A stretch of 32,970 bases of DNA, filler included, from an uncultured virus (IMG/VR IMGVR_UViG_2522125174_000001) (taxonomy: Duplodnaviria; Heunggongvirae; Uroviricota; Caudoviricetes). It is 6 parts of one record of this genome, joined end to end, with 100 filler letters (N's around TTAATTAATTAA, not from the genome) between each part and the next. Parts side by side here need not be neighbours in the genome. Positions count along the whole stretch, not along the records: positions 17,359 to 23,185 come from IMGVR_UViG_2522125174_000001; 5 more parts are not named here. One strand, 5' to 3'. The notes beneath the pieces were generated by a model, which was not told the origin of the DNA, searched no databases, and saw only the letters and a list, made by a program, of their open reading frames with translations. Positions 8,446 to 32,970 of this stretch are shown piece after piece; position 1 is the stretch's first letter; every line of letters starts with the position of its first letter. A program made the position numbers and the translations under genes.

Positions 8446-8497
8446 TTTGCCCTCTCACGTCTATTCTTCTGTTTTCTATTTAAACCCACTTCATAGT

Positions 8498-8917: not shown

Positions 8918-8935
8918 ATTCAATCGATAGTGTGC

Positions 8936-8962
8936 AGACCGCCTTAGAGCGGTCTTTTTTTT
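8936..8962 (+). terminator. Rho-independent terminator-like hairpin
   Basis: AGACCGC-cttaga-GCGGTCT followed by a T-tract. Conserved in the second copy at 23932. Confidence 0.7.
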
Positions 8963-8986
8963 CGTCTACACACTTATAAAAAATTC

Positions 8987-9412
8987 ATGACCGACACCTT
9001 TGACAGGGCCGCACTCATTTCAGAGCTTAAACGCGATGAAGGCGAGCGCTTTAAACCCTACTTCGATACCGTAGGCAAAATCACCATCGGCGTGGGACGA
9101 AATCTCACCGATGGGGGCATCTCTCAGAGCGAATGCGAGATTCTTTTACACAACGATATTGAAAATACGCTCGCGTGGCTGGATAGAAATCTCCCATGGT
9201 GGCGCATTCTCGATACAGTGCGGCAACGCGTACTCATCAACATGGCCTTTAACCTCGGTGGCAAGCTTCTGACTTTTGGTAACACGCTCGTCGCTATCCA
9301 ACACAACGATTACGCAGCCGCGGCTAACGGTATGCTCGCCTCTAAATGGGCTACTCAGGTCGGCCAACGAGCACTGCGCTTGGCTAATACGATGCGCACC
9401 GGAAAAATTTAA
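8987..9412 (+). CDS. Endolysin (GH24/T4-like lysozyme)
   Basis: LKRDEG.R.KPY.DTVGK.TIGVGRNL, NMAFNLG and SKWA.QVG.RA.RL motifs. Confidence 0.9.
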   Translation: MTDTFDRAALISELKRDEGERFKPYFDTVGKITIGVGRNLTDGGISQSECEILLHNDIENTLAWLDRNLPWWRILDTVRQRVLINMAFNLGGKLLTFGNTLVAIQHNDYAAAANGMLASKWATQVGQRALRLANTMRTGKI

Positions 9413-9428
9413 CTCTCAATATTAAAAA

Positions 9429-9722
9429 ATGAATCTTCACGAACATGATCGAACGCTGCTTGCCACATTGGCTGCGATGGGCGCAGCGATTGCGATTGGC
9501 AAATTGCTCACCGGTGGCGAGAAAATCACCGCTCGGCTGATTATCGGGCGCATGATTGTAGGGGCCGGCTTAAGCGTCGCCGCGAGCTCGATTCTCATGC
9601 TCTTGCCTGAACTCTCTCCGATCGCTGTTACAGGCCTCGGTGCAGCACTCGGCATTCTCGGCCAATCTTATTTGGAATGGGCTGTACAGCGCTGGTTAGG
9701 CAAACGCAACCATGCTGAATAA
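9429..9722 (+). CDS. Holin
   Basis: 97 aa with about three hydrophobic segments and a basic C-terminus. Lies between the lysozyme and Rz-like genes. Confidence 0.8.
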   Translation: MNLHEHDRTLLATLAAMGAAIAIGKLLTGGEKITARLIIGRMIVGAGLSVAASSILMLLPELSPIAVTGLGAALGILGQSYLEWAVQRWLGKRNHAE

Positions 9723-10254
9723 TTGGATTGTTAGCTTATTACGGCCATTGTGCGTTGCAGCAACGGCCTTTTGCTTTGGCGTAGGGTGTGCAGGCTCTTT
9801 TTACTATGGCCCGCGTATTCAAAAAGAACGCTCGGCGTTGGTGGAATACAAGGCCCAACTCGCCATGGCCCATGCCCAATTGATTGAAACCCAAGCCAAA
9901 GTCGTCATACAAACTGAAATTCAATTCCGTGAACGCATCAAAATCGTTAAAGAAAAAGGCGACACCATTATCAAGGAAGTGCCTATCTATGTTACCCAAG
10001 CTGATACTGACCGTTTCGGCGTTAACGTTGGCTTCGTGCGCCACTACAATGCCGCCTTTGCCAACGAACCTGCCGGATCTCCCGCTGAGCCTGATCGAAA
10101 ACCCACCGGAATTTCGCTTGCTGAGATTGCCGAGGTCAATGCCTATAACGCCAACATTTGCTGGCAGTGGCGCGAGCAAGCGCTTGGACTAAGAGCATTT
10201 TATCGACAGTTACAAAATGCTCAAACAGCATCCACACACATCCTGAGCCAATAA
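9712..10254 (+). CDS. Rz-like inner-membrane spanin
   Basis: N-terminal hydrophobic segment and helical body. Last gene of the lysis cassette and contains an out-of-frame lipoprotein ORF. Confidence 0.65.
   Translation: MLNNWIVSLLRPLCVAATAFCFGVGCAGSFYYGPRIQKERSALVEYKAQLAMAHAQLIETQAKVVIQTEIQFRERIKIVKEKGDTIIKEVPIYVTQADTDRFGVNVGFVRHYNAAFANEPAGSPAEPDRKPTGISLAEIAEVNAYNANICWQWREQALGLRAFYRQLQNAQTASTHILSQ
9989..10192 (+). CDS. Embedded Rz1-like outer-membrane lipoprotein spanin
   Basis: MLPKLILTVSALTLASC with lipobox LASC, Pro-rich mature part, AAGGAAG upstream. Same length and lipobox in the second copy. Confidence 0.65.
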   Translation: MLPKLILTVSALTLASCATTMPPLPTNLPDLPLSLIENPPEFRLLRLPRSMPITPTFAGSGASKRLD

Positions 10255-10329
10255 ACCTCTTAGCCAGCATCTGATCTAGCGAACCTTGTGTTTCCCTCCC
10301 TATCACAGCTTTGCATCCTTTCAAATCAC

Positions 10330-12976
10330 TCACCTACCGCTCTTCTTCCTACTTTCTAACGCGCCTCGCTGCCTCAAAAGCCGCCCATTCATCTCGCTTA
10401 AGCCTTCTACGCCTTCAAACAACATATCTGCTACACTCAATGCTCCATGCCCCGAACTCCAGTTCAGTTTCAACTTATAGCCTTCCGCTTCTTTTTGCAG
10501 CTCCCACTGGCGCACTGACCTGTCTCTACTGCCACTCACCAAATACTGGTGTCCATCCCGCTCCGTCCAGGCTACACTAGACACGCCCCCCCTAAATCCA
10601 TGAATCACGCGCAGACACACTCCCGAGGACACTTCCCACAGACGCACCGTCTCGTCCTCACTCCCCGAGGCAATCTGCGTGCCGCTCGGCGAATACACCA
10701 CGCTCTGAACCNNNNNNNNNNNNNNNNNNNNNNNNNNNNNNNNNNNNNNNNNNNNTTAATTAATTAANNNNNNNNNNNNNNNNNNNNNNNNNNNNNNNNN
10801 NNNNNNNNNNNCGCACCGTAGTGTCAGCACCCCCCGAGGCAATCTGCGTGCCGCTCGGCGAATACACCACGCTATTAACACTTTCGGTATGGCCTTCTAA
10901 GGTGTGGATTTTTGCCCAGCTTGAGGTGTCATAGAGGCGGATCTTGCCGTTTCCAAGGCCCATCGCACAGGTTTTCCCATCCGGTGAATACGCGCAGGAA
11001 TTGACTTCGCTCTCTTCTTGTATATACGCCCATTCACCAAACTGCACCCCAGCCATCTGCGCACCGCTTAAATTCGCCTCACGGAGCCAGCTGGAGTGAA
11101 GCTTCACTCCGCTTAAATCCGATCCCTGCAATTGCGCTGAATCCAATACCCCAAAACTCAGATCCGCTCCAGGGATCCGGATCCCCTGTAAATCCAGCCC
11201 ATTCAACTGGATCCCTGCCTTGACCAGAATCGTGATCGCATTCGCCGCACCCTGACTCACAGAGTCTGTCTGCTTTGAGCTTTTGAGCCAGGCCAGCAGC
11301 GGTTTCACCAGTGCTCTGTTCTGTTGTACTCGCTCCACTAAAAACTGCTGAATCGCTGCATCCTCCACCAGATTGAAGCGCTTCAATAATCCTTTCGGAT
11401 CCACCCGATCCGAGTCATTCAGCGCTTTCCAGAGGGACTGGACATTCTTCATCCCATTCAAGGGTTCGCCTGCGTCCCCTCCTGCCGACTCTTCCAGCTC
11501 TTCCCACATCTCACGCGCCACGAAATAGTCCCGCAACGATTTATGGATAAACTGGTATTGGTCTCCTTGCCTCGATAACGGCGCATTAAACCGTAAGAGA
11601 CGCGTCTTTTCGTCATCATTACTTAAAAAACGACTCCAATCTTGCCCCTCGCTGGCTTTACCGGTCGAATATGTCGCAACCAAAACCTGCTTTTCATACA
11701 ACGCAAGCGCAAATTCCTGGCTAAAATGAATCCCATGCTCTACAAAATCCTCTTCGGCTAAGCGGTTAAAGGTTTTTTGCTCTTCTTTAGTGAGCTGAAT
11801 CCCTTGTAACCGGCTCTGCGAGCGGCCAAACCAGTTTTTCGCAAACTGCTCATAGAGTGCGCCTCGAGTATAGGAATTCCGATTAGAAGAGCCTTCTTTT
11901 GAGCCCAACGAAGGCAACACCTCTAGCACAATCTTAAGTAAAAATGGATTGCCTATCAGCGCCTGTAAGTCTGGATGCGATAAAGCGCTTTCATACTGTT
12001 CCGCACTCCATTTGGGGGCTTGAGCATGTCTGACATGGCTTTCTACATAGCCTTTAATAGCAGACTTAGAAAAAGGCGCCAGCTCGCATTCTTCAAATAC
12101 CCTGGCTTGACCGGAAGGATAAAACTTGCTTTGATAACTCGGTCCTAAATATTCTGGACGACTACTGATTATCACTTTAGCATCCCACTTATCGAGCTTA
12201 TTATCCATATAAAATGCCCGTTGACGATGCTTGATCTCATCATAGCCATCGAGAATAAAAATAAACCGCCGATTTTGACGTAGCTGTTGGATCTGCTCTT
12301 TTGAAAACCCTTCCTCAGTAAAATATTCCATTAGGAGATTTTTATTCGGATCTTCTAGACTCGTCAGCGGAATAAAGACTGGAATACGCTCATCTTCTTT
12401 TCTATCTGCCTGCTCATATTTCTCCCATAAATCGCGGGCCAAAGAGCGATTAAACGTCGATTTTCCTGAGCCGGCCTCGCCTAGCAGTAAAAAGACTTTT
12501 TTATCCGATTCTAAAAACGCATCAAGCTTGTGTCTTAAATCAAAACGCTCACCCGATTCGCTACTGCTCACCGCCTTACCTTCAGCCCCCACATAAAGAC
12601 TCAATGCATCTCTTATCGTTTCGTCAATTTGTAGGCCTGATAAATAATTCTGTCGCATCGTTTCAATGCTTTCACCTAAATTAGCTAGGGGAGCAGTATT
12701 AGGTTGTAAGGCGAAGTTTTGATGACGTATTAGAGTTTCTAAAAGCTTCGGGTCTAAACCTGTTCCATGGTAATGAACTTCCACTTGGTGATTCGAACCA
12801 CTCACTGGGATACTCACTAAGCCTGTGCTAATTTGTGTGACAGATTGCATCTCTGCATCATAAGCCTCATACATTGAATCAGGTCGTGCTCGTTTATTTG
12901 AAAAAGATGAATCTATTTGAGGAAAATATGAAGCTAAGGAAGGTTGAGTATTCTGGCTTGGATTAATCGGCGACAT
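10330..12976 (-). CDS. NLR-like protein 1: NACHT NTPase + pentapeptide repeats + WD40 repeats (assembly gap within the WD40 array)
   Basis: Walker A GEAGSGKS, Walker B FIFILDGYDE, IISSRPEYL, GNPFLL, FIHKSLRDYFVA, pentapeptides (GADLS…EANLS) and WD40 repeats. Repeat sequence matches on both sides of the gap at 10712-10811. Confidence 0.85.
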
Positions 12977-13332: not shown

Positions 13333-16005
13333 TCAAAGTCTAACATTTCTTTGAATAAAATCTAACACGCTATTCTCTGAGTATCGGGCCCCGCGCTGAT
13401 TTAACAGCTTATGGTTCACTTCGCTTAACCCTCTTACGCCTGCTATTAACGTACCGTTCACCATCAGCTCCTCATGTCCTGGTGACCTCCAATCCAGTTT
13501 GACCTTATACCCTTCTCTCTCTTTTTTTATCTCCCATTGGCGCACGAACTTATCGCTACTACCAGTCAACAGATATCCCCCTCCGGCCCCCCCTTGCCAG
13601 GTTACACTTAAAACGGATCCCATAAAACCTTGAATCTGCCTCAAGCATTCACCCGAGGATACATCCCACAGACGGACCGTATGATCATCACTCCCCGACG
13701 CCAGCTGAGATCCCGTCGGCGAATACGCTACGCTATTAACCCNNNNNNNNNNNNNNNNNNNNNNNNNNNNNNNNNNNNNNNNNNNNTTAATTAATTAANN
13801 NNNNNNNNNNNNNNNNNNNNNNNNNNNNNNNNNNNNNNNNNNACTCCCCGACGCCAGCTGCCCTCCCGTCGGCGAATACGCTACGCTCATAACACTACCC
13901 GTATGCCCGCGCAAGATCGGACCAGCAGCGCCGCTTATGACATCCCACAGACGAACCGTATGATCCAAACTCCCCGACGCCAGCTGAGATCCCGTCGGCG
14001 AATACGCTACGCTCATAACCCAAGACTTATGCCCGCGCAAGGTCAGGATGTTTGCCCAGCTCGACGTGTCGTACACGTGAATCTTGCCATCCTTAAACCC
14101 CATCGCACACGCTTTCCCATCCGGTGAATAGACGCACGAACTCACCCCGTTCTTTACTTTTAGAGTCGGCCATTCGCCAAACCGCACCCCCGCCATCTGC
14201 GCGCCTCTTAAATTCGCCTCACGCAGCCACACCTGACGAAAATTCACTTCGCTTAAATCCGCTCCTTTTAACTGCGCTGAATCAAATATCCCATAACTCA
14301 AATCCGCACCAGGGATCCGGATTCCATTTAAATCCGCTTCATTAAACTGTATCCCTGCTCTGACCAAGAGCGTGATCGCATTCGCCGCTCCCACCGTCAC
14401 CGCAGCATTCCGATTTTTAGACACATCTATCCACGCACACAAGTGGGCTTTGAAAGCCGAGTACTGTTTAACTCGCTCCACCAAGAAATCGAGAATCAGC
14501 GGTTCATCCACTAATAAGAATTGATTCAACACCGCTTCAACGTACGGTTGAGCGCTGTTAAATTGCGGACCACAAATCGCTCGCGCCACACAATAATCTT
14601 GGATCGATTTATGGATAAACCGATAGTGTTGTCCTTGATGAATCAGCGGCGCATTAAACAATAATAAACGTTTTTCTGCATCTTTTTTATTAAGATATGT
14701 CCGCCAGGCTTCTGGAACAACCTCATCCTTTTCAGGGTCGTAGGAAGCTCGTATGATCCCCTTTTGAGTCAAGGCAATCGCCATTTCCTGGCTTGCTTTT
14801 AGTCCTTCTGCAGCCAGATGTTGACCCAACTTATTTCGTGCATCTTTCTCTTCCTTGGTCAATTTAATATGCTGCAACCGCTCGTTAGAGCGATTCCACC
14901 AACGCAATATAAATGCGTCATACAGAGCAATACGAGTCATCGATGCTAGCTCGTTTTTAGTCAGATCGGGTAAAAGATCGAGCGCCATCCGCAGTAAGAA
15001 TGGACGGCGTATCGTTTCTTTTAAAGTCGGTAAATTATTTAAGGCGTCTTGATATCGTTTTAAATCCCATCCTTTCCGTTTGGTATGTTGAATATATTTT
15101 TGAATATATGCGGTGTTCCAGTCATCTGAAATTGGAGAAAGCCAATATTCTTGCAAGGCGGAGGTTTGACCCCGTTTCTGGAATTGACTACGATACCCCT
15201 CTCCGAGATACTCTGGGCGAGAACTGATAATGACTTGCGCATTCTTCCAGCAGTCAAGCTTATTCTGCGTATAAAACGCTTCCGTACGATCTTGAATTTC
15301 ATCAAAGCCGTCCAAAATAAAAACCAACCGTTTTTCTTTTCGAAGCATAGCAATCGCTTCTGGCGAGAATTCTTGTTCCAGCAAATAGCTTTCTATTAAA
15401 TCTTCGCGAGAAGGCGTATGTTCGGCAAGTGCAATAAAAATCGGGAGGGGCGCAGCAGGAGATTGCTTATACTCATCCCAGAGCATGCGCGTTAAATGTC
15501 GATTAAAGGTCGATTTACCTGAACCTGCCTCGCCAAGCAGTAAAAGCACTTTTTTGTTAGATGATAAAAATTCACATACTTTATCAATGAGCGTAAAGGT
15601 AATCTTACTATCCGCCATTTCCTGCCCTTCAGAAGGAATATACAGCGCAAGGCTATCTCTTATTTCATCGGTTTCTTCAAGCACATTGAGGTAGGCAGTT
15701 CTAAGTTCCTCAATCTGTGTACCTAATTGGGCTAGAGGCTTATAACGCGCAGCCTCTGCATGGGCGTTTAACCTTTCAAATATCAGCTTGGTATTTGGAT
15801 CTGAATCCGTTAAGAAAAAATTCGTTGTGACTATGTGATTCTGCCCATAGAGTTGATTGCTCACCATGCAGTTTTCGCTAACTTGCACAATGCTCTGTCC
15901 CTCTATACTTTCTTGCGCATGGATTGCATCAATCTGTGTCAGCAGATTGGAGGAGGTTGAAGTAATGGAAGTTTGGGGGATTCTTGAACCTGAAACGGGC
16001 AACAT
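13333..16005 (-). CDS. NLR-like protein 2: NACHT + pentapeptide + WD40 (gap within the WD40 array)
   Basis: GEAGSGKS, LVFILDGFDE, FIHKSIQDY, pentapeptides and WD40 repeats. AGGAG RBS upstream of the ATG. Repeats match across the gap at 13743-13842. Confidence 0.85.
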
Positions 16006-16846: not shown

Positions 16847-19479
16847 CTATATTGCGCCTCGTTGTCTTAACAAAGCTGCATTTTGAAAACTGAGATTACG
16901 GGCATCTTGGATGAGGGCTTTTGAAGCAACAAGCGTATCTTGATTTGAAACCCAATCTAGCGTGATTGTGCCTATTTTGCCTGAGCGATAAGGAATTTGC
17001 CAAAGACGAATCGTTTTATCGTCTCCTGCTGTGGCCAATATAGCTGCTTCATCCTGCACGGGGTGCCACGCAACGGTCCGAATAGAACCTACCCAGCCTT
17101 CGAGTACCGTTTGACAATCCCCTGTTAAGACAGACCAAAGCCTAACTGTTTGATCCTCACTTGCAGACGCGAGCCACTGTCCATCACTTGAGAGCGCGAC
17201 GCTCCGCACTGCATCTGTATGCCCTTCATAGGTATAGGCCAGTGCACGTTCTCCCCCTNNNNNNNNNNNNNNNNNNNNNNNNNNNNNNNNNNNNNNNNNN
17301 NNTTAATTAATTAANNNNNNNNNNNNNNNNNNNNNNNNNNNNNNNNNNNNNNNNNNNNACTCCCAGAGGCAAGCTGCGTTCCGCTCGGCGAATACGCTAC
17401 GCTATTGACACCATCCGTATGTCCGAGCAACGTCCGGACCGATTCACCGCTTTGCACATCCCACAGCCGTACCGTATGGTCAGAACTCCCAGAGGCAAGC
17501 TGCGTTCCGGTCCGCGAATACGCTACGCTATTGATACCATCCGTATGTCCGCGCAGAGTACGGATTTTTGCCCAGCTCGACGTGTCATACACGCGGACCT
17601 TGTCATCTTCTAACCCCATCGCGCACGCTTTACCATCCGGCGAGTAGACACACGAATGCACTTCGCTCTTTTCTTTCAGAGTCGGCCACTCCCCAAACTG
17701 CACTCCCGCCATCTGCGTGCTACTTAAATTCGCCTGATACAGCCATACCTGACGAAAATTAACCCCGCTTAAATCCGACCCTTGCAATTGCGCTGAATCA
17801 AATACCCCATAACTCAGATCCGCTCCAGGTATCCGGATTCTATTTAAATCCGCTCCATTAAACTGTACTCCTGCTCTGACCAAGATCGTGATCGCATTCG
17901 CCGCGCCCACCGTCACTACAGCATCAGGAACTTTAGAGGCTTCTATCCACGCACGAAGGTACGCCTTAAACTGAGGTTGCCCTTTAACCTGCTCAACCAG
18001 AAAATCTAAAATCACCGGCTCTTTCACCAGCGATAGCTGATTCAGCACATTTTCGGGATTGGCATCGATTGCATCAAAATCAGGGGCGCAAATGGCTCGC
18101 GCCACTAAATACTCCTGCATCGACTTATGCGAAAATTCATAATGCTGCTTTTGCTTTATCTGAAACGGCGCGTTAAAGCACAGTAGACGGGCCTTTGCAT
18201 CATTCGCAAAAAAAGCCGCATAGACTCCTTTATATCGCTTCTCAAAATCCTCACTATCCTGAGCAGATGTCAGCCCCGCTTTGGTGAGCTCTATCGCGCA
18301 TTTCTGTATATAAGTAAAACCTTGTCGTATAAACCCACCTTTGCGCTCACAGAGTTCTTTCTTAGCCTTTTTTTCATCATCCTCTAATGCGATAGCGCCC
18401 AAGCGATTCTGCCAGTTACTCCACCATTTCTGAAAGTAGTGTTCATAAATCGCACCGAGCGTTAAGGCTTTCTGGTTTTGATTCATTTTCCCCAATTCAG
18501 GAAGGATCTGCAAAAGCATTCGCAACACAACAGGCCGTTCTAGTTCCTTGCTTAAAGTTGTCAACTTGTTAAATGCCTGCTCATACTGTTCCACAGTCCA
18601 CGGGGGAGTGCTTTTGTTGACATAATTTTGAATGTAATTCGACCTTTGCTGCGCTGAGAATGGGGCCATCCTGGCTTCCCAAAGTGCATCAGGCGCCGCT
18701 TTTTTAGGGCGGAAATACGCTTGATAATTCGTATCCAGATACTCAGGTCGGCTTGTAATCACAAACTTGGCCTTTTCCCACGCCCATAATTTATTTAAAT
18801 CATAAAAATTACGATTCCTTTCCTTGATCTCATCGTACCCATCAAAAATAAAAATACAGCATTGGTGTAGGTGAGTCCGTAATAATTCAATTTGCTCCGA
18901 TGCAAAACCTTGGCCCTGCAAAAATTGTTCAATAACCTGCTTATTCGGATTCTCAATACTTCTCAGTTCGATAAAAAAAACTAAAGGCGGATCGTTTTGG
19001 GTTTGGGACAGACGTTGATAATCTTCCAACTTTTTGAGGGCTAAATGTCGATTAAAGGTCGATTTCCCTGTGCCCGCCACGCCTTGCAATAAAAATACCG
19101 CCGCCTTTGAAGCAAAAAATCGCTCTAATTCTGCTTCAAGCTCTACCGTCTCTTCTCCTTGTTGGCCTTTCTTTATGCCCTGTACCGGAACATACATCGA
19201 CAGCACATCCACTTCGCCGCTACGCTCTAAATGGCTTTTATACGCTTGCTTGAATCTATCGGCATCGACGCCGAGTTTGGCAAGAGGTTCAAGTATAGGT
19301 TGGAGCGCCTTCCTCTGATTTTCTTGGCTCTTTTCAATGCCTTGCATTAAAGCTTCTACGATCTTGGGATCTAAAGCCCCCGCGTCGAAATTCACTGTAG
19401 ATTCATTATGCGCACCATAGACTGAGATATTAATCAAGCCATAGCTGTTTTGCGTTACTGGTCGTGCCTCAGGAAACAT
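16847..19479 (-). CDS. NLR-like protein 3: NACHT + pentapeptide + WD40 (gap; pairing of the two halves uncertain)
   Basis: GVAGTGKS, IFIFDGYDE, FSHKSMQEYLVA, pentapeptides and WD40 repeats. AGGAG RBS. The C-terminal piece 16847-17258 ends in the family-typical …NAALLRQRGA. Confidence 0.8.
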
Positions 19480-19780
19480 GCTAATCGCTCCTCTCTAATC
19501 ATTCGTTGATCTGCTGAATACGCCACTACCAGCTAAGAATTCGGCCTTCGCTGAATAAAACCTCCTGCCTCAAAGCTGGCACATAAACAACGCCAAAACT
19601 TTCCAAATAATTCGACTTTTATTCGAAGTTTTGCTCGCGCAATTCTACTTCAAAATTGCTTCGGAAAACTCATGCCTAATTCGCATTAATAAGGCCTAAA
19701 AAGCCCTAATTTGGCTATTGTTCCGAAGCAGAGAATCGTCTATCCTGTTGATTAAATTCACTTTTGTTGAATTTCAGCCA

Positions 19781-19842
19781 GGACTCGAAATCCGGTATAC
19801 TGGTCCCCAGTATCGAGGGTTCAAATCCCTCCCTTTCCGCCA
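19781..19842 (+). other. att-core: 3' part of tRNA-Ser(CGA), copy 2
   Basis: Identical to 16303-16364. Confidence 0.85.
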
Positions 19843-20640
19843 ATTCCCTGTGTTTATAAGGCTTTACAGTTTCAAACCTCCGATTCTGCGCCGGTTTTTG
19901 CTTCGCACCCCCTCTTCTAATCCCTTGTTTGCCCCCATCACTCAAAGCCCTGCGCCGGTCTTTTGCTTCGGAATGCGTTATTTTGTCTGTTTTTCAGGCA
20001 GGCTTATTGCAACGATCAATAAGGGAGAAAAACGTTTAAGTTGAGTCGGGGATGGAGATGATTTTCTGCATAGCCTGCGCCCCGCCCAATTCAACGATGG
20101 GGTCAATTCAGCAAAAAAGTCTAGAGCGTTTCGGATAGAGAAAAGCGGACCAAAACAGAGGACTCAACGAAACACATAGCCCTTAGCGCATCACTCTTAT
20201 TTCTTCGTGACGCGCAAAAAGCAAGAAGAACCCGATGAGAAAATCTTAAAAAATAAACAACCCTCTCAATCTAAATCTTGGCTCAGCGATTACATATCTT
20301 TAAAAAATAGATAAAAATAGAAGGCTAGTGAAAAAGAACATCTCTACCTTAAAAATTTGACAATTCGTAGAAATTGACTAAAAATTCAAATCAGCAAAAA
20401 TAATTGCTCTAGATAAGTATTCTGTTCCTTTTTGCAAAAACATATTTTACTTCTTCAAATTGTATAGCTTGATTACCATTCTCTCTCAAAAGATTCAGGC
20501 ACAGTTTATTATTTTTCTGCTTTGATTCAGATAAATTCTTTAAACTCGTGCTACTGAATCCAGACAGTAATAATAGCTATAAAATTCCTTTTTGAATGTG
20601 TTGTTTTTTTATTTTATGAAGAACTTTACTGGAGCTTATA

Positions 20641-22164
20641 ATGGAAATTACGTCTTCGCAGTCAACATCTTCATCACCTTCAATATCCAGAACACCCTCT
20701 CCTTCTCCTACGCTTCCCACTTCTCAAGAAACAGAAAGCAATTCGGGAAAAAATCAATTATCAAATCAACACATAAAAGGTTTCGTAGTTGACGCGGGCC
20801 AGCCTTCTAATCAATCCGATATTGGCTCGGCTACAAGAGTAGGCCGCGATCCAAAAGTTGATACAGTCTCTCAACAGTTAGAGAAAACCAAAGACCGTAT
20901 TCCTAGCGCTCTAGACTCAATAACAACAAACTTGAATCGAATATCTGGAAGGCTCGGTCAATTAGAACCAAAATTTCTAACTATAGCGCTTCCCGTATGC
21001 GTAGCTTCTCTATCCTTCTGGCTTTATGCAACGAATACTTTCCAGACTTTTCAGGGCAAGCCTAATCATCAATCTGAACCTTTGTTAGATAATCTCTTAA
21101 AGCAGGTCAATCAATTCGAGCAAGCAAATGATAATATGCCTAACCGTCTAGATTTGCTGGAAGCTGAGCTTAGCCGCCTTTCTGCATTGCTGAATCAATC
21201 GAATCCGCAATCTTCACATCCCGCCCTTTCTGCCTGTGTCTTTTCCATATTCCTTTGCTTCTGCGTAATTAGTACTTTGTGGAAAAAATTGAATAGCCAG
21301 TCCATACAAAATAAAAAACTAGAAGAACAGCTTATCCAGCTCAAAAACGAAAAAACTGATCTAGCCATTGAATTTAATAACCAATCTGCGCTAAGCAAAG
21401 ACCAACTCTCAAAACTCCAAGGATTGGAACAACAGCTCAGCCAACTTACAAACGAAAAGACTGATCTAGTCATTGAAGTTAGTAACCAATCGGAACACAT
21501 TCAGACTTTACGAAATGAGTTTGATACTCTGCATAATCGCTTTCATTTGAAAAACGAAAACTTGCCTTGGGCTAAATTGACTGGAGTACCGACAACTTTA
21601 GGGGCATTTGGTATTACTGATGCTATAACAACTGAAAAATTTGAAGCCGTGTTTAACAGTTTTCACCCCAAAAACTGTGAATTGGATTGGCAAAAAATTT
21701 CCAATACGCCATCTACTATCAGTGGATATGGCATCACTGACGCCGCTCCTCTTGGCAGTCCATTTGTCGGCACGCCCACCGCTCCTACGCCCAACAAGGC
21801 CAGAAATTACAGTACCCAAGTTGCCACCACTGCTTTCACTCAGAACGCTATTATGTCTGCCTTTACTGGACCTGACCGGCAATCTTTAGAGACTCGAGGA
21901 GGTTATCAAGCATTACCTGGCGGACTTATTTTCCAATGGGGACTCACTTATAGCAACAGCGATGGAATGTCCAATGTGACTTTCCCTATCAAATTTCCAA
22001 CGAAATTTATAGGCATTCATGGCACTCACATCGGCGGTGGAAATGCAACCGTTATTGAATATGTTGGGACTCGAACTAATCTAGGTGTCACATTGCGCAC
22101 CATTAATGAAAATAGTCACACCTCCGAAGGATGGGGCGTTCAATGGTTTGCTCTTGGAGATTAG
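20641..22164 (+). CDS. Chimeric protein: Ser/Pro-rich N-terminus, two hydrophobic segments and coiled coils, fused to a tail-fibre C-terminal region
   Basis: Intact 507-aa ORF with a GGAG RBS. From ~21514 it is clearly paralogous to the 7456-8445 fibre (GITDA repeats, GTPTAPTP, LPGGLIFQWG, ATVIEYVGTRTN, GWG..WFA.G). Confidence 0.8.
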   Translation: MEITSSQSTSSSPSISRTPSPSPTLPTSQETESNSGKNQLSNQHIKGFVVDAGQPSNQSDIGSATRVGRDPKVDTVSQQLEKTKDRIPSALDSITTNLNRISGRLGQLEPKFLTIALPVCVASLSFWLYATNTFQTFQGKPNHQSEPLLDNLLKQVNQFEQANDNMPNRLDLLEAELSRLSALLNQSNPQSSHPALSACVFSIFLCFCVISTLWKKLNSQSIQNKKLEEQLIQLKNEKTDLAIEFNNQSALSKDQLSKLQGLEQQLSQLTNEKTDLVIEVSNQSEHIQTLRNEFDTLHNRFHLKNENLPWAKLTGVPTTLGAFGITDAITTEKFEAVFNSFHPKNCELDWQKISNTPSTISGYGITDAAPLGSPFVGTPTAPTPNKARNYSTQVATTAFTQNAIMSAFTGPDRQSLETRGGYQALPGGLIFQWGLTYSNSDGMSNVTFPIKFPTKFIGIHGTHIGGGNATVIEYVGTRTNLGVTLRTINENSHTSEGWGVQWFALGD

Positions 22165-22298
22165 CCGGGCGATTATTGATATAGTTTATGCGAATACCGG
22201 GTACCCCTCCGGTCGGGCTTTGCTTTCTCTCGGGAGCACCTTGTATTCGTACAACCGAAGTTGAACGGTGGTGTATCAGTTTAAATCGCTGTTGATAG

Positions 22299-22559
22299 CT
22301 ATTTCGTTGGCTCCACCTTTTCACCCCGCCGATTGCGAACATAGTGTTCCGTCATCTTGATACTCGTATGCCCCAACTGCTTTTGCGCGCGACGAATATC
22401 CCCCGATAACTCTGCCCTGTCTGTCCCCGCTTTCGCCCGCAAATCTCGAAACTGATACTCCTCTGCACATAAGCCTGCCGCAGTGCGCGCTTGCGCAAAC
22501 ATCGCTTGTAGCGTTTTTAACGCGACTCGCGCTCCTAACTCATTCACTACCAAATCCAC
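22299..22559 (-). pseudogene. int: Tyrosine integrase, C-terminal remnant
   Basis: QFRDLRAKAGTD…AQKQLGH…MTEHYVR.R.G contains the catalytic R, H and Y motifs. The N-terminal part is missing. Confidence 0.8.
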
Positions 22560-22725
22560 ATGCTGTTTGACAGCAATGGAATGTCTAATGTGATTTTCCC
22601 TGTCAAGTTTTCAACGAAATGTCTGGCCATTCATGGCACTCATCTCGGCACTGGATGTGCAACCGTCATCGAATATGTCGGGACTCGAACCAATATAGGC
22701 GCCACATTGTGCACTCTCGATGAAA

Positions 22726-23380
22726 GTAAGCGCGAAATTAAACCCACCTTGTCATTTTAAAAGTCAGAAAAGAGAATGATTCTTTTTTGAAAAGGGTCAG
22801 AAATGAAAACCAGTGAAGTGGTGTTGACGACCTTTGACGGACACTTTTAAACTACCTAAAAAGGAGTCTTTAATGCGTAAAAGCAAAGCGCCGTATCCAT
22901 CGGCATTCCGTGAACAAATACTAGAGCTAATACAAGCTGGCAAGAGTGTTAAAGAGTTATCCAAAGAGTTCGATTGCTGCCCTAAAACAATCCTGAGTTG
23001 GGTAGCGCAAGCCTCAATAGCTCAAGCTCCTAAATCATCGATCAAGGCGGGCCTAAATACTGCAGAGGGAGAAGAGCTCAGTCGCTTACGCCGTCAAGTA
23101 AGGCAGCTCCAAATGGAGCGGGATATCTTGGCAAAGGCTACGGCCTGGTTTGCCGCAAAAGGCGAGAAGATACACACTCCCTCTTNNNNNNNNNNNNNNN
23201 NNNNNNNNNNNNNNNNNNNNNNNNNNNNNTTAATTAATTAANNNNNNNNNNNNNNNNNNNNNNNNNNNNNNNNNNNNNNNNNNNNTTTACTCCCTTTTAA
23301 TTTCCACACAAGCTCTGACGCTTCTTGATAACTCTCTGAGTTGCACATTTATGTCAAGGTGGGGTTAATTTCGCGCTTAC
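22726..23380. mobile_element. IS66-family element (interior lost in an assembly gap) with an 8-bp target duplication
   Basis: Terminal inverted repeats GTAAGCGCGAAATTAAACCCACCTT / AAGGTGGGGTTAATTTCGCGCTTAC. CGATGAAA is duplicated at 22718-22725 and 23381-23388. Confidence 0.8.
22814..23185 (+). mobile_element. IS3-family element left end with OrfA (ATG 22873), nested in the IS66-like element
   Basis: TG…GGACAC end and AAGGAG RBS. MRKSKAPYPSAFREQILEL…ELSRLRRQVRQLQMERDILAKATAWFA is an HTH/leucine-zipper OrfA. Confidence 0.75.
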
Positions 23381-23493
23381 CGATGAAAATGCCATGACCC
23401 GCGCAGGATGGGGCCTTCATTGGTTTGCTATTGGACATTAATTTGCCCTCTCATGTCTATTCTTCTGTTTTCTATTTAAACCCACTTCATAAT

Positions 23494-25246: not shown

Positions 25247-28200
25247 TCAGAGTTCTTCAACAGCGCTTTCTTCTTCATTCATAGCGTCCACCAAAACGAT
25301 ACTATCCATTTCGTCAGAATTCTCTTCGGAAAAGGCTAGAGCATTTCTTTGTTTTTGTGCGAGCAAACGAGCATTACCTGGACTTAAATCCCGAGTGCCT
25401 TCAATCAACAAATCGCCTACGAAAAGCTCGTTTTGATGTGAAGCCCAGCACAAACTAAATTTCCAGCCGTTTTCTTTGCGCGCTAGCTGAAAAATACGAG
25501 CCATATTTTCGTTCCCTCCCAGCACAATTCTAGCTGAGTCTTCCGCAACCTCTTGCCAAACAATTGAATTAACTTCCCCAACAAAAGCTTGAATCTTTGC
25601 TTTACATTTGCCTGTGTCTAACAACCACAGCCTCATTATTCTTTCAGCACCCCCAGATGCTAACCACTTGCCATCTGGCGAGAACGATACACTCATCACT
25701 TCCCCACGATGTCCTTCAAGCGTCTGACGCAACAACACTCCTGCGCTTCCTAGCTCCCACAACCTCACTGTCTTGTCAGCACTCCCAGACGCTAACCACT
25801 TGCCATCTGGTGAAAACGATACTCTCGTCACTTCCCCATGATGCTCTTCAAGCGTTTGACACAACAACGCTTCTGCGCTTCCTAGCTCCCATAGCTTTAC
25901 CGTCCTATCCCCGCTCCCAGACGCCAACCATTTACCATCTGGTGAAATAGATACATCCCACACTGTATCATGATGCCCTTCAAGCGTTTGACGCAACAAC
26001 GCTCCTGCGCTTCCTAGCTCCCACAACCTCACTGTCTCGTCAGAACTCCCAGACGCCAACCATTTACCGTCTGATGAAAACGATACTCTCGTCACTTCCC
26101 CATGATGCTCTTCAAGCGTTTGACGCAACAACGCTCCTGCGCTTCCTAGCTCCCACAACCTCACTGTCTCGTCAGAACTCCCAGACGCCAACCATTTACC
26201 GTCTGATGAAAACGATACTCTCGTCACTTCCCCATGATGCTCTTCAAGCGTTTGACGCAACAACGCTCCTGCGCTTCCTAGCTCCCATAGCTTTACCGTC
26301 CTATCCTCGCTCCCAGACGCCAACCATTTACCATCTGAGGAAATAGATACATCCCACACTGTATCATGATGCCCTTCAAGCGTTTGATGCAACGAAGCTC
26401 CTGTGTTTCCTAGCTTCCACAGCTGCAACTTCCCATTATTGGTCGATGCTAACCACTGGCCATCTGGCGAGATAGACAAACTCGATGTCGCCGTAGAACG
26501 CTCTTCAATCGTTTGATACGATAACGCGCTTACGCTTTCTATATCCCACAGCTTTACCGTCCTATCCCAACTCCCAGACACTAACCACTTACCGTCTGGC
26601 GAGAACAATACACTCCGCACTGGCTCATAATGCCCATCAAACATTTGGCGCAACAACGCTCCTTCGCCTCCTAGCTCCCATAGCTTCACCGCGCCATCCC
26701 AAGCACCAAAAGCTAGCCATTTCCCGTCTGACGAAAACGACACACTCGCCACTGCACCGCTATATCCTTCAATCGTCTGGCGCAACAGCGTTCTTGCGCT
26801 TCTCAGTTCCCACAGTTTTACTGTTCCATCAAGACTCCCAGACGCTAACCACTGGCCATCTGGCGAGATCGATACACTCATCACTCCCCCACGATGTCCT
26901 TCAAGCGTCTGACGCAACAACACTCCTGCGCTTCCTAGCTCCCATAGCTTTACCGTCCTATCCCCGCTCCCAGACGTTAACCATTTGCCGTCTGGTGAAA
27001 CCGATACACTCGTCACTTCCCTACGATGCCCTTCAAGCGTGTACTGCAGTTGACCCGTTTGTACTGCCCATAATTTGATCGTATTGTCGTAACTGCCTGA
27101 GACAAGCCATTGCCCCTCTGGCGAAAACGCAACGCTCGAAACCTGAGCATTGTGCCCTATAAATGTGCTCTGTAACCCACCCGATTCAACTGACCTTAGC
27201 TCCACGACAATAGTATTGGCCAACGCGAGCCATTGGCTATCTGGCGAAAACGCGATGCTTTTCACTCCCGATTCCCCCGTTCCAATATGCAGCGTGGCAT
27301 ACTTGAGTTCTAGAGTTTGCGCCTGATACAGTTTGACATAGCCACTAGCTGTGCCAACAGCTAGCCAGTGACCGTCTGTCGAATAACTGCAATCTTGAAC
27401 AAAATCTCCTACCTCTAACGCAGGCATTTCACCAAATTCAACATCTCTCAACGTTGCTGCACGCATATTGGCCCCGCGTAACCACACACCGAGCAATTTC
27501 ACCTCGCTTAAATCAGCACCTTCAAACTGGGTTCCATCAAATATGCCATAACTTAAATCCGCTCTGGGCACGCGTATCCCGTTGAAATTTTTGTTATTCA
27601 AATGCACGCCGGCTTTCACCAATAGAGTGAGTGCATTTGCGGCACCCCTCTCAAACTGAGCACCGTCTTCTCCTTTAGATTGCTCTACCACGCTCAAAAG
27701 CTTGCTTTCTAACTTCGGCTCTCGCTGCATGCGCTCGGCTAAAAACTGCAATACCGCTGGATCGTTCACAATATTTAACGTATTGAACGCAAAGGAAGGT
27801 TCAATCTTGTTATGAGTATCTAACTCTTCCCACAGCGCTCGAGCCACAAAATAATCCTGCATCGATTTATGAATAAACCGGTATTGCTCTCCTTGGCGGA
27901 TTAACGGCGCATTAAACCGCAATAACCGCGTCTCTTCACTCTTATTTCCAAAGTATTTTTGTTTCCAATCTTCCGCCTTTGCCCCACTTACTCCCGAATA
28001 TGTCACCACTACCGCTTTATCTTCATGCATCTGGACCGCTAACTCTTGGCTAAATACCAATCCATACGCCGTAAAATTATCTTCATCCAAACGATTNNNN
28101 NNNNNNNNNNNNNNNNNNNNNNNNNNNNNNNNNNNNNNNNNNNNNNNNNNNNNNNNNNNNNNNNNNNNNNNNNNNNNNNNNNNNNNNNNNNNNNNNNNNN

Positions 28201-30588
28201 NNNNNNNNNNNNNNNNNNNNNNNNNNNNNNNNNNNNNNNNNNNNNNNNNNNNNNNNNNNNNNNNNNNNNNNNNNNNNNNNNNNNNNNNNNNNNNNNNNNN
28301 NNNNNNNNNNNNNNNNNNNNNNNNNNNNNNNNNNNNNNNNNNNNNNNNNNNNNNNNNNNNNNNNNNNNNNNNNNNNNNNNNNNNNNNNNNNNNNNNNNNN
28401 NNNNNNNNNNNNNNNNNNNNNNNNNNNNNNNNNNNNNNNNNNNNNNNNNNNNNNNNNNNNNNNNNNNNCATTCTTCAAATACTCGTGCTTGACCGGATGG
28501 ATAAAATTTGCTTTGATAACGGTCTCCTAAATATTCGGGGCGGCTGCTTATTATGACTTTCGCCTGCCATTTCTCGAGTTTGTTATCGGTATAAAACGCA
28601 CGAGAACGTTGCGCAATCTCATCATAGCCATCCAAAATAAAAATAAATCGCACACCTTTACGTAAATCTTCTATCTGGTGTTTAGATAAACCTTGTTCTT
28701 CCAGATATTGTTCGATCAAATTTCTGCCGGGGTTCTCTAGCGTAGCCAGTGAAATGAATAATGGGATTGGCCTTTCTTGGGTATTTTCCGCTTGTGTATA
28801 GTCTTTCCATAACCGATGTGCCAGGTAACGGTTAAATGTTGACTTTCCGCTTCCGCCCTCACCTAACAGCAACAAGACTTTTTTATCCGAATCCAAAAAC
28901 TCATTGACCTTCCCTTCTAAATCAAAATGTTCTGTCGCCTCCGCTGTGAGCTTACCTTGCGGTGCAACATACATCGCCAAACCATCCTGGATTTCTCCAA
29001 GCTCTTCCCAGTCCTTGAAATATTCTGCCTGGATACTTTCACCTAAAATCGCAAGTGGCTCTTTCTTCGATTTCAGTTCTTTTTCTTGCTGATGCTTCAA
29101 TTGTTGATGGAGTTGCTGCACGGTAAGGGCAAGCTCGTTGTGTAACGCTTTCCGTATATCATCGAAAATACTGTCTACGAGTTGGGTAAACTCAAGCCCA
29201 TCAAACTTTGAATCGTTCTTCAAATGCGAAATACAATCGCTGTACCCCTGCCAAAACTTATTCAGAAACGTTTGGGCTTCGTCACTACCCGCTAACAGCC
29301 GCTCGATCAGCTTAAAGAGCACCCCATGCCGACTTTGATTCGCATACACTTCTCGCCCTGCTTGCGCTTGTTCTTCAAAGCGCGGTATGTCTTCCATCCG
29401 AACCGCTGTCGCTGAAACAAAATCTGACAAGCACGCATCGTAGCTATTCAAGGTTAACGCAACCGGAATAATCCCATGCTTATCTTTAAGCTCTTCTGCT
29501 CGGATTTGCAAAAATGCCATTTCTGTCAATACATGATGGAACCCGGCCTTATAGCTTTCCTCTTGCGAGAATTCTCTGACCACCTCACGTATCGCCATCG
29601 CGCTATCTTGCTCACTATCTTTAAGATACGCTTCTCGATCTTTGCGATACGCCTCTCGCAGTTTCTGATAAAAATGGCCATAATCCGACCACTTTAGATA
29701 ACTTCCCAATACCTCAGAACAACACACCGTGACCTTATCGACCGGGGTCACATCGCCTCGCAACCGCCCCGGTAATAGACACAGCTGATTGGTTAAAATA
29801 TCTTCTAGCTTGCCGTCCTTTTTCAGATCTCTCGAAACACTTGAATACGGTTGCCCCATCGGCGTTTGATCCGAATACAAAATCACTTGAATTTGAGAGA
29901 GCTTTTCAATTAAATATTTAGAGGTAGAGGCCTCAGCCTTTCCGTGGGCTGGATTGTCATGCGCATATACTAAAAACAGGCTGGGTTTATTCGCGACCTT
30001 TAAGGCACCCAGCGTCGACAGCGCCTTTTCAAACAGGTAATCCATCTGCTTGCTTTTTTCTTCGATAGACACATCAACCTCTCGTTGCAAAGGCGTTAGA
30101 CTCAGTTTTGAAGGCCGCGCATTTGCAACCCACTCTTTTGTTGGATCCAGTTGTTTTCTATTCCCCTCGCTCACACTCTCATTTTTAATTAAAAATGAGC
30201 CGTACCGTGCGCCTATTTGTTGATGCAACATTCGCGCGCCGGTTTGCTTCATATCCATATAAGGCGCGTACTCTAACGCCTTTTTATAATTCTCCTCAGC
30301 GCCGCATTTATCGTCTTTGCGTAGAAAAGTGCCATAGTAAAAATGGCTTGCGGCAAGTTGCTCTCTTATTTTTCTTAATTCAGACTCATTTTGAGTGCTT
30401 TGCAGCACGTCTTCTGCTTTGCGAATCCCCGCTTCAAAACATTCCTTTGCTTTCTCCAGATATCCTTGCGCCTCATAGCCCGTCGCTTCCTCTCGAAGCT
30501 TATTGGCTGCTGACAAGCCAGAAACTGAAGTGGGGGTCGGATTAACCCCTCTACCCCCAACCCCCATCAATACATTCAAATTAAACAT
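25247..30588 (-). CDS. NLR-like protein 4: TPR-like + TIR/SEFIR-like + NACHT + pentapeptide + ~14 WD40 repeats (gap 28097-28468)
   Basis: The N-terminal part has TPR-like helices, SLFLVYAHD…, GEGGSGKS and FIFILDGYDE. The C-terminal part has FNAPL…FIHKSMQDYFVA, pentapeptides and 44-aa WD40 repeats. The halves are colinear with NLR1 across the gap. Confidence 0.8.
25981..26287. repeat. Perfect 132-bp tandem repeat (about 2.3 units) within the WD40 array
   Basis: Unit starting CAAGCGTTTGACGCAACAACGCTCC recurs at 25981, 26113 and 26245. Confidence 0.9.
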
Positions 30589-31352: not shown

Positions 31353-31562
31353 GAGAGCCTGTCATTATTTTTGTGTGCGGGGAAGCCTCACCTAGAAATT
31401 ACAGTCTCATGCTAAAGAAACAGTAAATCGGTCGCCAAATAAGATGGCAAATTGAATTTTAGCTGCTCGCCATATAATCGGAGGCATTTTCCACTCCTTA
31501 GAGATATTGCGCACGGCTAAATAAATTAATTTAATAGCGGCTTGGTCGTTAGGGAAATGGCC
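31353..31562 (-). mobile_element. IS256-family right-end fragment (inverted)
   Basis: Minus strand encodes GHFPNDQAAIKLIYLAVRNISKEWKMPPIIWRAAKIQFAILFGDRF. Terminal GAGCCTGTCA…TTTTTGTGTGC resembles the end at 31563. Confidence 0.75.
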
Positions 31563-32970
31563 GAGGGTGTCAGCTTTTTTGTGTGCAAGAAGTCATATGA
31601 TAATGAAACTAATAAAAAGGGAAACATATGACGAAGATAGACAAAGGGATATTAGATAAATTTCTAGAGGGAATAGATCTGTCCAACCCTCAATCGATAT
31701 TCACGGAAAGCGGGTTGTTTGGTCAGCTTAAAAAGTCACTGGCCGAAAGGATATTGCAGGCTGAGTTAGAACATCATCTTGATCAAGAGCGCAGCACAGG
31801 AGAGATAAAGGGAAATCATAAAAATGGAAGTAGCAAGAAATCGGTCTTAGCGTCAGAGGACAAACTTGATTTGGACATACCACGAGATCGAGAGGGTAGC
31901 TTCAGTCCACAATTGATAGCGAAGCATCAGAGGCGATTGCCGGGCTTTGACGATAAAGTGATCTCGCTTTACGCACGAGGTTTACCGGTACGGGAGATCC
32001 AAGCCCATTTGACAGAGCTGTATGGCATAGAGGTATCGCACGATCTGATCTCCAAGATCACCTCAGAAGTCATGGATGAGGTAAGGGAATGGCAGAACCG
32101 GCCAATAGAGCCAATGTATCCGCTGGTATTTTTTGATGCGTTACGGGTCAAAATCCGGGATGAGGGCAGCGTTAAAAATAAAGCGGTCTATCTTGCCTTA
32201 GGTGTGCGGCCAGACGGAATCAAGGAAATTCTGGGTATTTGGATTGAACAAACCGAAGGGGCAAAATTCTGGTTGAGGGTCATGACGGAGCTTAAAAATC
32301 GGGGCCTGACTGACGTATTAATCGCGGTAGTGGATGGACTAAAAGGTTTCCCAGAAGCCATTACAGTGATGTGCTCCCCGAAAGTTGGACGGTGGATTAA
32401 GCAGCCTTTAAGGACTGATTTCTGTACTCTACAGGACTCAGTCCTTTTAATTTAATCTTGATTCGTTCATGGTTGTAATAGTGAATATATTCTTTCACTT
32501 GTCGTTCCAAATCATCAATTGAAGCGAACTGCTCACCATGAAAGCACTCTGACTTCAATAGACCAAAAAANNNNNNNNNNNNNNNNNNNNNNNNNNNNNN
32601 NNNNNNNNNNNNNNNNNNNNNNNNNNNNNNNNNNNNNNNNNNNNNNNNNNNNNNNNNNNNNNNNNNNNNNTATCCGCCGATTGCCTCAATTTGGCAGCGC
32701 CACTGGCAAGAAGTCATTCCCTTTTTTGCTTACCCGCAAGAGGTTCGTAAAGTCATTTATACAACCAATGCTATTGAGAGCCTACATATGCAGGTGCGTA
32801 AGGTGATTAAAAATCGAGGCCATTTCCCCAATGACCAAGCTGCCATTAAGTTGATTTATTTGGCTTTGCGAAATATCACTAAAGATTGGAAAATGCCACC
32901 TATCACATGGCGCTCTGCAAAAATTCAATTTGCCATCTTATTTGGCGAGCGTTTTACAGCTTCACTATAA
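31563..32970 (+). mobile_element. IS256-family element; transposase (ATG 31628) interrupted by an IS3-family insertion and a gap, C-terminal part at 32671-32970
   Basis: IPRDREGSF.PQLI, YPLVFFDALRVKIR, VDGLKGFPEAI and IYTTNAIESL motifs. Confidence 0.85.
32367..32570 (-). mobile_element. IS3-family (IS150-like) right end inserted in the IS256 transposase
   Basis: TGATGTGCTCCCCGAAAGTTGGAC end. Minus strand encodes FFGLLKSECF…EYIHYYNHERIKIKLKGLSPVEYR. Confidence 0.8.

Follow-up and report, generated by a model that had tools for sequence, protein, structure and literature searches.

We analysed a 32,970-nucleotide (nt) stretch of DNA, filler included, from an uncultured virus of the Caudoviricetes (IMG/VR IMGVR_UViG_2522125174_000001), hereafter called the window. 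It contains a chimeric open reading frame (ORF) at 20641-22164 whose product, P0001, carries the receptor-binding tip of a phage tail fibre on an N-terminal module (N-module) made of a Ser-rich leader, two hydrophobic helices and a coiled coil. The N-module defines a small family in one Mycoavidus-like genus, in which members end in different tips and tip-less paralogues lie close to a type III secretion system (T3SS). The explanation that we favour, at about even confidence, is that these proteins form an exported, probably T3SS-dependent, family of membrane-inserting effectors with exchangeable phage-derived binding tips. The Ser-rich leader of the constant N-module would act as the export signal, most likely for the T3SS, and the two helix units would insert into a membrane, most likely that of the host, leaving both termini cytosolic. 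The coiled coil would form a stalk that substitutes for the fibre shaft, and the C-terminal tip, derived from the resident prophage lineage, would bring along a ready-made domain for binding, probably of a sugar. Reuse of phage receptor-binding proteins is known from particles such as tailocins and contractile injection systems; here the tip alone is grafted on a membrane-anchor and stalk module that is linked to a T3SS by position, repeatedly and with different tips, in endofungal bacteria.

Architecture of P0001

The chimeric ORF, the parts of its product and the intact prophage fibre to which the tip is paralogous are located as follows.

20641-22164, plus strand: chimeric ORF encoding P0001, ATG start, 507 amino acids (aa), frame open
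20641-20970, plus strand: leader, aa 1-110, rich in Ser, Thr, Pro and Gln, without a hydrophobic stretch
20974-21030, plus strand: hydrophobic helix 1, aa 112-130, Kyte-Doolittle hydropathy over 19 residues (KD19) 1.87, preceded by the conserved helix ...LNRISGRLGQLEPK
21223-21279, plus strand: hydrophobic helix 2, aa 195-213, KD19 2.38, followed by WKKLN
21286-21540, plus strand: coiled coil, aa 216-300, with an internal duplication whose unit number varies among homologues
21523-22164, plus strand: tail-fibre part, aa 295-507, two repeats and a Gp53-like_C beta domain
7456-8445, plus strand: intact prophage tail fibre, paralogue of the tip, followed by a chaperone gene at 8429-8917

The leader is composed of Ser, Thr, Pro, Gln or Asn at 51% of aa 1-110 and at 76% of aa 1-25, where Ser alone makes up 40% and a single acidic residue is found; in the AlphaFold2 monomer model aa 1-70 have no structure. 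Across the 507 aa, only two KD19 segments pass the Kyte-Doolittle mark of 1.6, all others being at or below 0.88. No signal peptide was found, and the hydropathy profile of the whole protein has no Sec-type hydrophobic region before aa 112. The two helix-plus-hydrophobic units are homologous to each other, with a local score of 78 compared to 21.7 ± 4.3 for shuffled sequences (reached in 0 of 2000 shuffles). The coiled coil is likewise duplicated around LE(E/Q)QL.QL.NEKTDL.IE, with a score of 81 compared to 23.7 ± 4.6 (0 of 2000), and follows a single heptad register over aa 216-300, in which hydrophobic residues occupy 67% of the a/d positions versus 29% overall. In the model, helix 2 continues into the coiled coil as one helix spanning aa 194-301. 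The Ser/Thr/Pro-rich leader, the two repeated units and the duplicated coiled coil of the original prediction, which had been made from the sequence alone, were each confirmed by these measurements.

On the outer sides of the helix pair lie positive charges (RxxR..K before helix 1 and KK..KK after helix 2), and the loop sides of the two hydrophobic helices carry one and no positive residues. According to the positive-inside rule such a pattern gives an N-in, C-in topology, which would place both ends of P0001, including the tip, on the cytoplasmic side of a membrane. No match in Pfam, NCBIfam, PADLOC, the PDB sequences or the ESM Atlas explains aa 1-294. The PDB sequence search with this region returned a single match, to keratin (E 0.21), the ESM Atlas gave no usable feature match for aa 1-295 and listed generic coiled coils among its structure rows, and outside the tip the fold search with the whole model found generic long-helix matches only (Z ~7).

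The C-terminal part is clearly derived from a fibre. From aa 295 (nt 21523) onwards P0001 shares 58% identity with aa 114-328 of the intact prophage fibre over 217 aa (BLASTP, E 8e-83), so that the predicted diverged but frame-intact paralogue of the fibre tip is indeed present. Two FHxK...W.K(I/L)...P.T..G(Y/F)GITDA repeats precede the Gp53-like_C domain (PF21882), which lies at aa 425-506 (nt 21913-22158, E 5.5e-17) and also matches phrog_4209 (1.5e-19). The tip is the sole well-modelled part of P0001, with a predicted local distance difference test score (pLDDT) of 70-85, and the fold search matched it to AP22 gp53 (4mtm; Z 9.6, root-mean-square deviation 2.9, 92 aligned residues) and to the R2 pyocin fibre (Z 8.9). 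Like AP22 gp53 and the R1 and R2 pyocin fibres (6cu2, 6cl6, 6cxb), P0001 ends in a C-terminal beta domain preceded by GYGITDA-type repeats. It is solely from this fold likeness that glycan binding by the tip is proposed. Among unfused proteins, the closest relatives of the tip are fibres of the resident prophage type, at 52-61% identity.

P0001 differs from those fibres in that its baseplate N-terminus is replaced by the leader, the membrane helices and the coiled coil. In the prophage fibre of the window, aa 1-113 form the baseplate-side domain phrog_32540 (E 3.5e-39), to which P0001 has no match. The earlier description of P0001 as a fibre with a replaced N-terminus is correct as to the missing domain, and too narrow in that the protein is one member of a modular family with several tips. 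Its gene also differs from those of AP22 gp53 and the pyocin-type fibres in having neither a tail operon nor an adjoining chaperone, and in its lower G+C content. The tip has 44.2% G+C (36.7% at third codon positions, GC3), compared to 52.1% (GC3 49.8%) for the tip of the prophage fibre; the N-module has 40.5%, and the paralogues beside the T3SS have 38-42%. Since the composition of the tip has drifted close to that of the N-module and the T3SS-side paralogues, the fusion is probably old and has probably resided outside a phage for a long time.

The N-module family, its T3SS neighbourhood and its tips

A search with the N-terminal module alone recovered a small, genus-restricted family: 1.84 billion representatives, searched exhaustively with phmmer, yielded only 12 proteins at E <= 0.001. 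The named relatives belong to Mycoavidus spp. and to one metagenome-assembled genome labelled Glomeribacter sp., and the source databases label the members either hypothetical or 'gp53-like domain-containing'. We also scanned the bacterial family, in which 150 genomes were scored and one further genome was left unscored. The N-module was found in five of the 150, all from one Mycoavidus-like genus (five of its six genomes), and in none of the 144 scored genomes of 28 other genera. An alignment-pattern search of genome contigs for related loci gave 163 matches, none of which was confirmed, and none of the titles and abstracts retrieved from the literature describes the N-module family.

The nearest genome, G001, harbors a complete non-flagellar T3SS cluster encoding a YscD-like protein, a secretin and SctI, J, L, V, N, O, Q, R, T and U. 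At the end of this cluster, 2.4 and 5.1 kb beyond sctU, are two N-module paralogues without a fibre part. One is a two-unit protein of 441 aa that is 33% identical to aa 17-256 of P0001 (E 1e-23); the other has 388 aa and one unit. The arrangement is general in the genus: sctU is present in all six genomes, and in all six an N-module paralogue lies 1.2-5.1 kb from it, including G066, where the P0001-based query had missed the paralogue and it was found by reading ORFs. These T3SS assignments were read in G001, which stands in for the window's own assembly, and in the other genomes of the genus. The extreme N-terminus, MQIxSS or MEITSS, is kept across subfamilies that are only ~30% identical overall. 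Together with the T3SS-adjacent paralogues, this conserved start lends indirect support to the role of a secreted, Inc-like membrane effector, which the original prediction had listed among several options.

The tips of the family are not constant. Among 12 representatives, three end in Gp53-like_C, two in a phage Collar domain and seven in no tip known to Pfam; two of the latter seven have the non-fibre WGSW...PPSQ ends that are also found in the T3SS-side paralogues. P0004 has a module 87% identical to that of P0001 and a Collar tip, and P0005 retains the first fibre repeat and then continues into an unrelated end. A profile search added P0027 and P0028, whose module belongs to the other subtype (67% identity to P0012, a T3SS-adjacent protein) and is followed by a longer fibre part that resembles the fibre of the window in its last domain only. 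Because this second subtype is also fused to fibre sequence, fibre parts must have been joined to the N-module more than once. Two tipped genes of G082 are placed inside a cluster for the lipopolysaccharide (LPS) core and glycosyltransferases, not in a prophage, and G049 has a Collar-tipped gene among mobile elements, also outside a prophage. The N-module was not found in the intact prophage regions of G001 or in the provirus record G002, both of which hold the fibre only. It thus seems that the bacteria have put phage binding domains to a use of their own.

A constant N-module with varied C-termini, and a partial tip copy downstream (22560-23432), is reminiscent of polymorphic toxin and effector loci, in which the N-terminal trafficking parts stay constant and the C-terminal cassettes can be swapped (PMC3482391). 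In P0001, however, the variable part is a binding domain, there is no immunity gene, and the downstream copy is broken by an insertion sequence (IS); we attribute that copy to prophage decay.

Several further observations concern these neighbourhoods. A translocator pair of the YopB/YopD type, for which a two-helix and a one-helix protein would be expected in tandem with matches to translocator families, was considered for the T3SS-side paralogues and rejected: they gave no Pfam match at E <= 0.001, both of those in G049 have one helix, and the two G001 proteins are paralogous to each other. A conserved lipoprotein-like gene (...AACGGG N-terminus, no Pfam match) is located between sctU and the N-module paralogues in G001 (L011, 3409-4413) and G066 (L032, 8430-9185), and beside the paralogues in G049 (L021, 2403-3197). 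FlhB/SctU-family genes occur three times in G001 (C1 242162, 686693 and 901093) and twice in G024 (C1 219079 and 661767), which implies that each of these genomes encodes at least two export systems of the type III or flagellar kind; our analysis covered the one adjoining the N-module paralogues. In the LPS cluster of G082 (L030, G082:C1:1624001-1644000), the two fibre-tipped genes are divergent, occupy 7545-12678 and include one that is split by a Tn5-type IS. Genes for a Kdo transferase, a heptosyltransferase, a phosphomannomutase and an epimerase lie on one side, and a row of glycosyltransferases on the other.

Conservation, selection and competing explanations

The fusion is neither an assembly artefact nor unique to one strain, two doubts that had accompanied the original prediction. 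The region 20541-22264, including the junction, is spanned by single contigs of three sequencing runs: X1, the probable source of the window, and X3 and X4, which come from two further studies and depart from the window at 21 and 25 letters, respectively. G001 has a 97% identical ortholog of 502 aa placed between IS elements, and X4 carries the same in-frame 15-nt deletion as this ortholog. The chimeric ORF is open in the window, G001, X3 and X4. Homology between the window and G001 extends over 19786-22574, at 97.7% in the main block, and takes in a tRNA-like fragment, the spacer, the ORF and the integrase stump; because the joint that truncates the integrase is common to both, the truncation predates the split of the strains. 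A run labelled metatranscriptomic, which is probably DNA (X6), contributed one 221-nt contig at 20687-20907 with a depth of 2.4 and is uninformative on expression.

Ratios of non-synonymous to synonymous substitution rates (dN/dS) were estimated with our own Nei-Gojobori script. Between the window and G001 the ratio is 0.89 for the whole gene (5 synonymous and 15 non-synonymous changes), 0.73 for the N-module and 1.0 for the tip. The N-module gives 0.34 between the window and G082, 0.42 between the window and G049, and 0.27 between G082 and G049, and the tip gives 0.28 against the prophage fibre and 0.21 against the split G082 copy; in these more distant comparisons dS is 0.8-1.8, near saturation, and the ratios are rough. 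The between-species values (0.27-0.42 for the module) indicate long-term purifying selection, a point that the original prediction had raised; between close strains the ratio is ~0.9, from 20 changes. We found no orthologous dN/dS control at the same divergence, as the flanking prophage genes match G001 at only 80-90% and have several paralogous copies.

The proposed effector family would have its closest functional parallels in Tir, taken up below, and in the Inc proteins of chlamydiae, which are inclusion-membrane proteins exported by a T3SS and have a bilobed domain, where a short hairpin loop connects two membrane helices, with both termini cytosolic. P0001 resembles them in its unstructured leader, its two hydrophobic helices and its coiled-coil parts, and the family resembles theirs in being a lineage-specific expansion in an intracellular bacterium with a T3SS. 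There is no sequence likeness, however, the helices of P0001 are 64 residues apart in repeated units and do not fit the definition of a bilobed domain, and the host is a fungus; to our knowledge, no Inc carries a phage fibre tip. If P0001 is exported, prophages would have a route for feeding binding domains into the effector set of a symbiont, and the family would be a defined set of candidates for the poorly known interface between Mycoavidus and its fungal host.

A number of observations weigh against this effector interpretation. The link to the T3SS is one of position only. Helix 2 is so hydrophobic (KD 2.38) that it could direct the protein to the bacterium's own inner membrane, and the wide spacing of the two helices is unlike the tight Inc hairpin. 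No chaperone gene adjoins the chimeric ORF, unlike the prophage fibre gene, and a fibre tip dependent on such a helper might fail to fold once it has passed through a T3SS. Outside the tip the monomer model is of poor quality (mean pLDDT of the model 49.3), one Gp53-tipped member of G082 has been split by an IS, and the close-strain dN/dS of 0.89 (tip 1.0) is not different from neutrality, with 20 changes being too few to decide.

A bolder form of the effector interpretation, which we regard as quite unlikely, is that the tip is displayed on host endomembranes, with both ends of the protein in the fungal cytosol, the compartment that the bacteria inhabit, and recognises the surface polysaccharide of the bacterium itself, the natural ligand for a fibre that comes from its own prophage. 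In this way the bacterium would furnish host membranes with a receptor for itself, and tip swaps would track changes in its LPS. Tir of attaching-effacing E. coli is such a T3SS-delivered two-helix receptor for the bacterium's own intimin, its binding part being the loop between the helices. P0001 would be comparable as a candidate T3SS substrate with two membrane helices that serves as a self-supplied receptor in the host membrane; it differs in that its binding part would be the C-terminal phage-derived domain, and there is no homology. The two tipped genes in the LPS cluster of G082 fit this possibility, as does the fold likeness of the tip to pyocin fibres, which bind LPS.

If P0001 is instead retained by the bacterium, it could be an inner-membrane protein with both ends in the cytoplasm, whose tip meets fibre subunits or their chaperone at the site of fibre assembly and spoils or sequesters them, in defence or in the taming of prophages in a genome that is crowded with related ones. 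Such a function would give the host a novel means of disturbing fibre assembly in its own prophages, and we consider it unlikely. The outer-side positive charges, with the topology expected from the positive-inside rule, and the very hydrophobic helix 2 are in its favor. So are the closeness of the tip to resident prophage fibres, the presence of two fibre assembly chaperone genes in the window and the location of the gene in a prophage remnant. The prophage content of 7-11.5% that is reported for the published Mycoavidus genomes (PMC5877345) can be counted on the same side. Fibre interference leaves unexplained, however, why tip-less paralogues are found by the T3SS in six of six genomes and why the leader is conserved, and the members in G082 and G049 are outside prophages. 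PADLOC, the library of which holds described systems only, assigned no family to P0001 or to either of the two G001 paralogues.

Placing the tip outside the bacterium, as an adhesin for host glycans or a mask covering a phage receptor, was part of the original prediction and has been weakened to the point of being very improbable. The tip does have the fold of a receptor-binding fibre end, and tipped members of G082 are located in the LPS-core/glycosyltransferase cluster. However, besides the missing signal peptide, no lipobox, beta-barrel or other outer-membrane anchor was found, the charges point the tip inward, to the cytoplasm, and the hydrophobic parts consist of two helices only, an anchor of the inner-membrane type. 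A two-helix anchor in the inner membrane cannot place a C-terminal domain beyond the Gram-negative outer membrane. That P0001 is a genuine part of a virion, an unusual fibre of a degraded prophage that docks through a different N-terminus, is so improbable as to be nearly negligible. The fibre-like C-terminal 213 aa speak for it. Of three marks of a fibre gene, the C-terminal Gp53-like domain is present, and the baseplate-docking N-terminus (phrog_32540) and the tail operon with a following chaperone gene are absent; no N-module was found in the intact prophages of G001 or the provirus record G002, and its paralogues are chromosomal, beside T3SS genes.

Finally, the gene could be a chance chimera produced by rearrangement in a graveyard of prophages, open and functionless. 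The surrounding truncated genes, IS elements and tandem att copies, the recent dN/dS of ~0.9 and the one IS-broken relative would agree with a decaying relic, which we nevertheless consider a poor bet. A frame of 507 codons has stayed open in DNA of ~40% G+C in the window, G001, X3 and X4, with the in-frame 15-nt deletion as the only one. The architecture recurs in several species with different tips and two N-module subtypes, at between-species dN/dS of 0.27-0.42, and the ribosome site typical of the family and a promoter-like element have been kept.

The prophage remnant and other features of the window

The surroundings of the chimeric ORF contain the following features.

19574-19951, plus strand: copy 2 of an att-like repeat of ~340 nt, after which the spacer begins
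19979-20640, plus strand: AT-rich spacer 5' of the chimeric ORF, 662 nt, 34.3% G+C
20357-20385, plus strand: promoter-like site TTGACA-17-AAAAAT, 286 nt before the ATG of the chimeric ORF
22299-22559, minus strand: integrase remnant, C-terminal 86 aa (Phage_integrase, 5.1e-10)
22560-23432, plus strand: third fibre-tip copy without its 5' part (Gp53-like_C, 4.3e-06), with the tip end at ~23340-23432

As the original prediction had stated, the ORF is intact, is preceded by AT-rich DNA and lies between the second att copy and the integrase remnant. The ~340-nt repeat occurs three times in the window, at ~16.1, 19.6 and 30.6 kb, with a mean column identity of 90%. Copy 2 contains a stretch at ~19777-19845 that resembles the 3' half of a tRNA (long variable arm, T-arm and CCA). 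Rfam gave an antisense match at 19787-19839 to a plastid element, which is read as overlying a tRNA-Ser gene, and ARAGORN found no whole tRNA in the repeat. In our own reading, the core of each copy is the 3' half of a Ser-type tRNA. Downstream of the ORF, the 5' part of the integrase is cut off at a joint with a fibre fragment (22559/22560), the third fibre-tip copy is interrupted by an IS3-type element at 22834-23241 (HTH_Tnp_1), and a second set of fibre-chaperone, lysozyme, holin and spanin-like genes follows. Given the att-like repeat on one side and the integrase fragment, fibre-tip copy and second lysis set on the other, the chimeric ORF is placed, by gene order, between attL and what is left of the integrase gene in a gutted prophage, itself one among several that have integrated in tandem at a single tRNA-type site. 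The ORF is outside any tail operon and has the att-like repeat, the AT-rich spacer and the integrase remnant as its neighbours; the nearest Caudo_TAP gene begins 1.26 kb downstream, beyond the integrase remnant and the IS.

An assembly gap is present at 23187-23285 inside the IS3-type element, where two N runs flank a ttaattaattaa linker, and the structure of this element is incompletely resolved. Invertible switching between the tip copies was considered and rejected, because the copies are direct repeats, the recombinase between them is a fragment and the sole inverted pair of the window consists of IS256-type ends.

In the 5' region, GGAG was read from the sequence at 20631-20634, nine bases 5' of the ATG. 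Upstream regions of the family are AT-rich (27-37% G+C) and have a GGAGnnnATA-ATG start region in common, and a TTGnnn-spacer-TAAAA element occurs upstream of six of the 12 family genes examined, in G082 at 288 nt before the ATG. As this pattern was composed after viewing the upstream sequences, and as promoter-like sites in 19979-20640 are not above the number in shuffled sequences (3 versus 5.0 ± 2.1), the element is only a lead.

In enteric bacteria, morons are found near att, integrase or tail-fibre genes, and Wolbachia phage WO carries a eukaryotic association module. The locus resembles these (see also PMC9203015) in the position between attL and the integrase remnant, the promoter-like site of its own, the lower G+C content and the large NACHT-WD40 genes at prophage ends. 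It differs in that the intact relatives of the remnant prophage examined are without the gene and that the G082 and G049 members lie outside prophages.

The window contains four NACHT-pentapeptide-WD40 genes, all on the minus strand, at 10760-12976, 13795-16005, 17311-19479 and 25247-30588. Each follows closely on a prophage lysis cassette, or on a ~100-nt copy of the cassette's end, and precedes an att-like repeat, which is where prophage cargo is placed. According to PMC11291939, Mortierellomycota fungi acquired NACHT-PPR-WD40 receptors from Mycoavidus endosymbionts, and the position at prophage ends could be the vehicle of such a transfer. The gene at 25247-30588 is read as two overlapping ORFs and includes a stretch of 27-28% G+C at ~27.5-29 kb. 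Its nine tandem WD-repeat units of 132 nt (25579-27063) are 70-90% identical to each other at the DNA level, which suggests ongoing shuffling of repeats.

The last ~50-120 nt of the spanin-like gene are found five times in the window, at 10092-10214, 13153, 16735, 25089 and 31281, and ~25 further short matches to this gene end (47-230 nt) are scattered over G001, a pattern like that of a small dispersed repeat, or of a scar left by recombination at prophage ends. At 31417-32963 lies an IS256/Mutator-type transposase with an ORF of 275 aa, truncated relative to the 379-position profile and flanked by inverted repeats of 146 nt that are 83% complementary.

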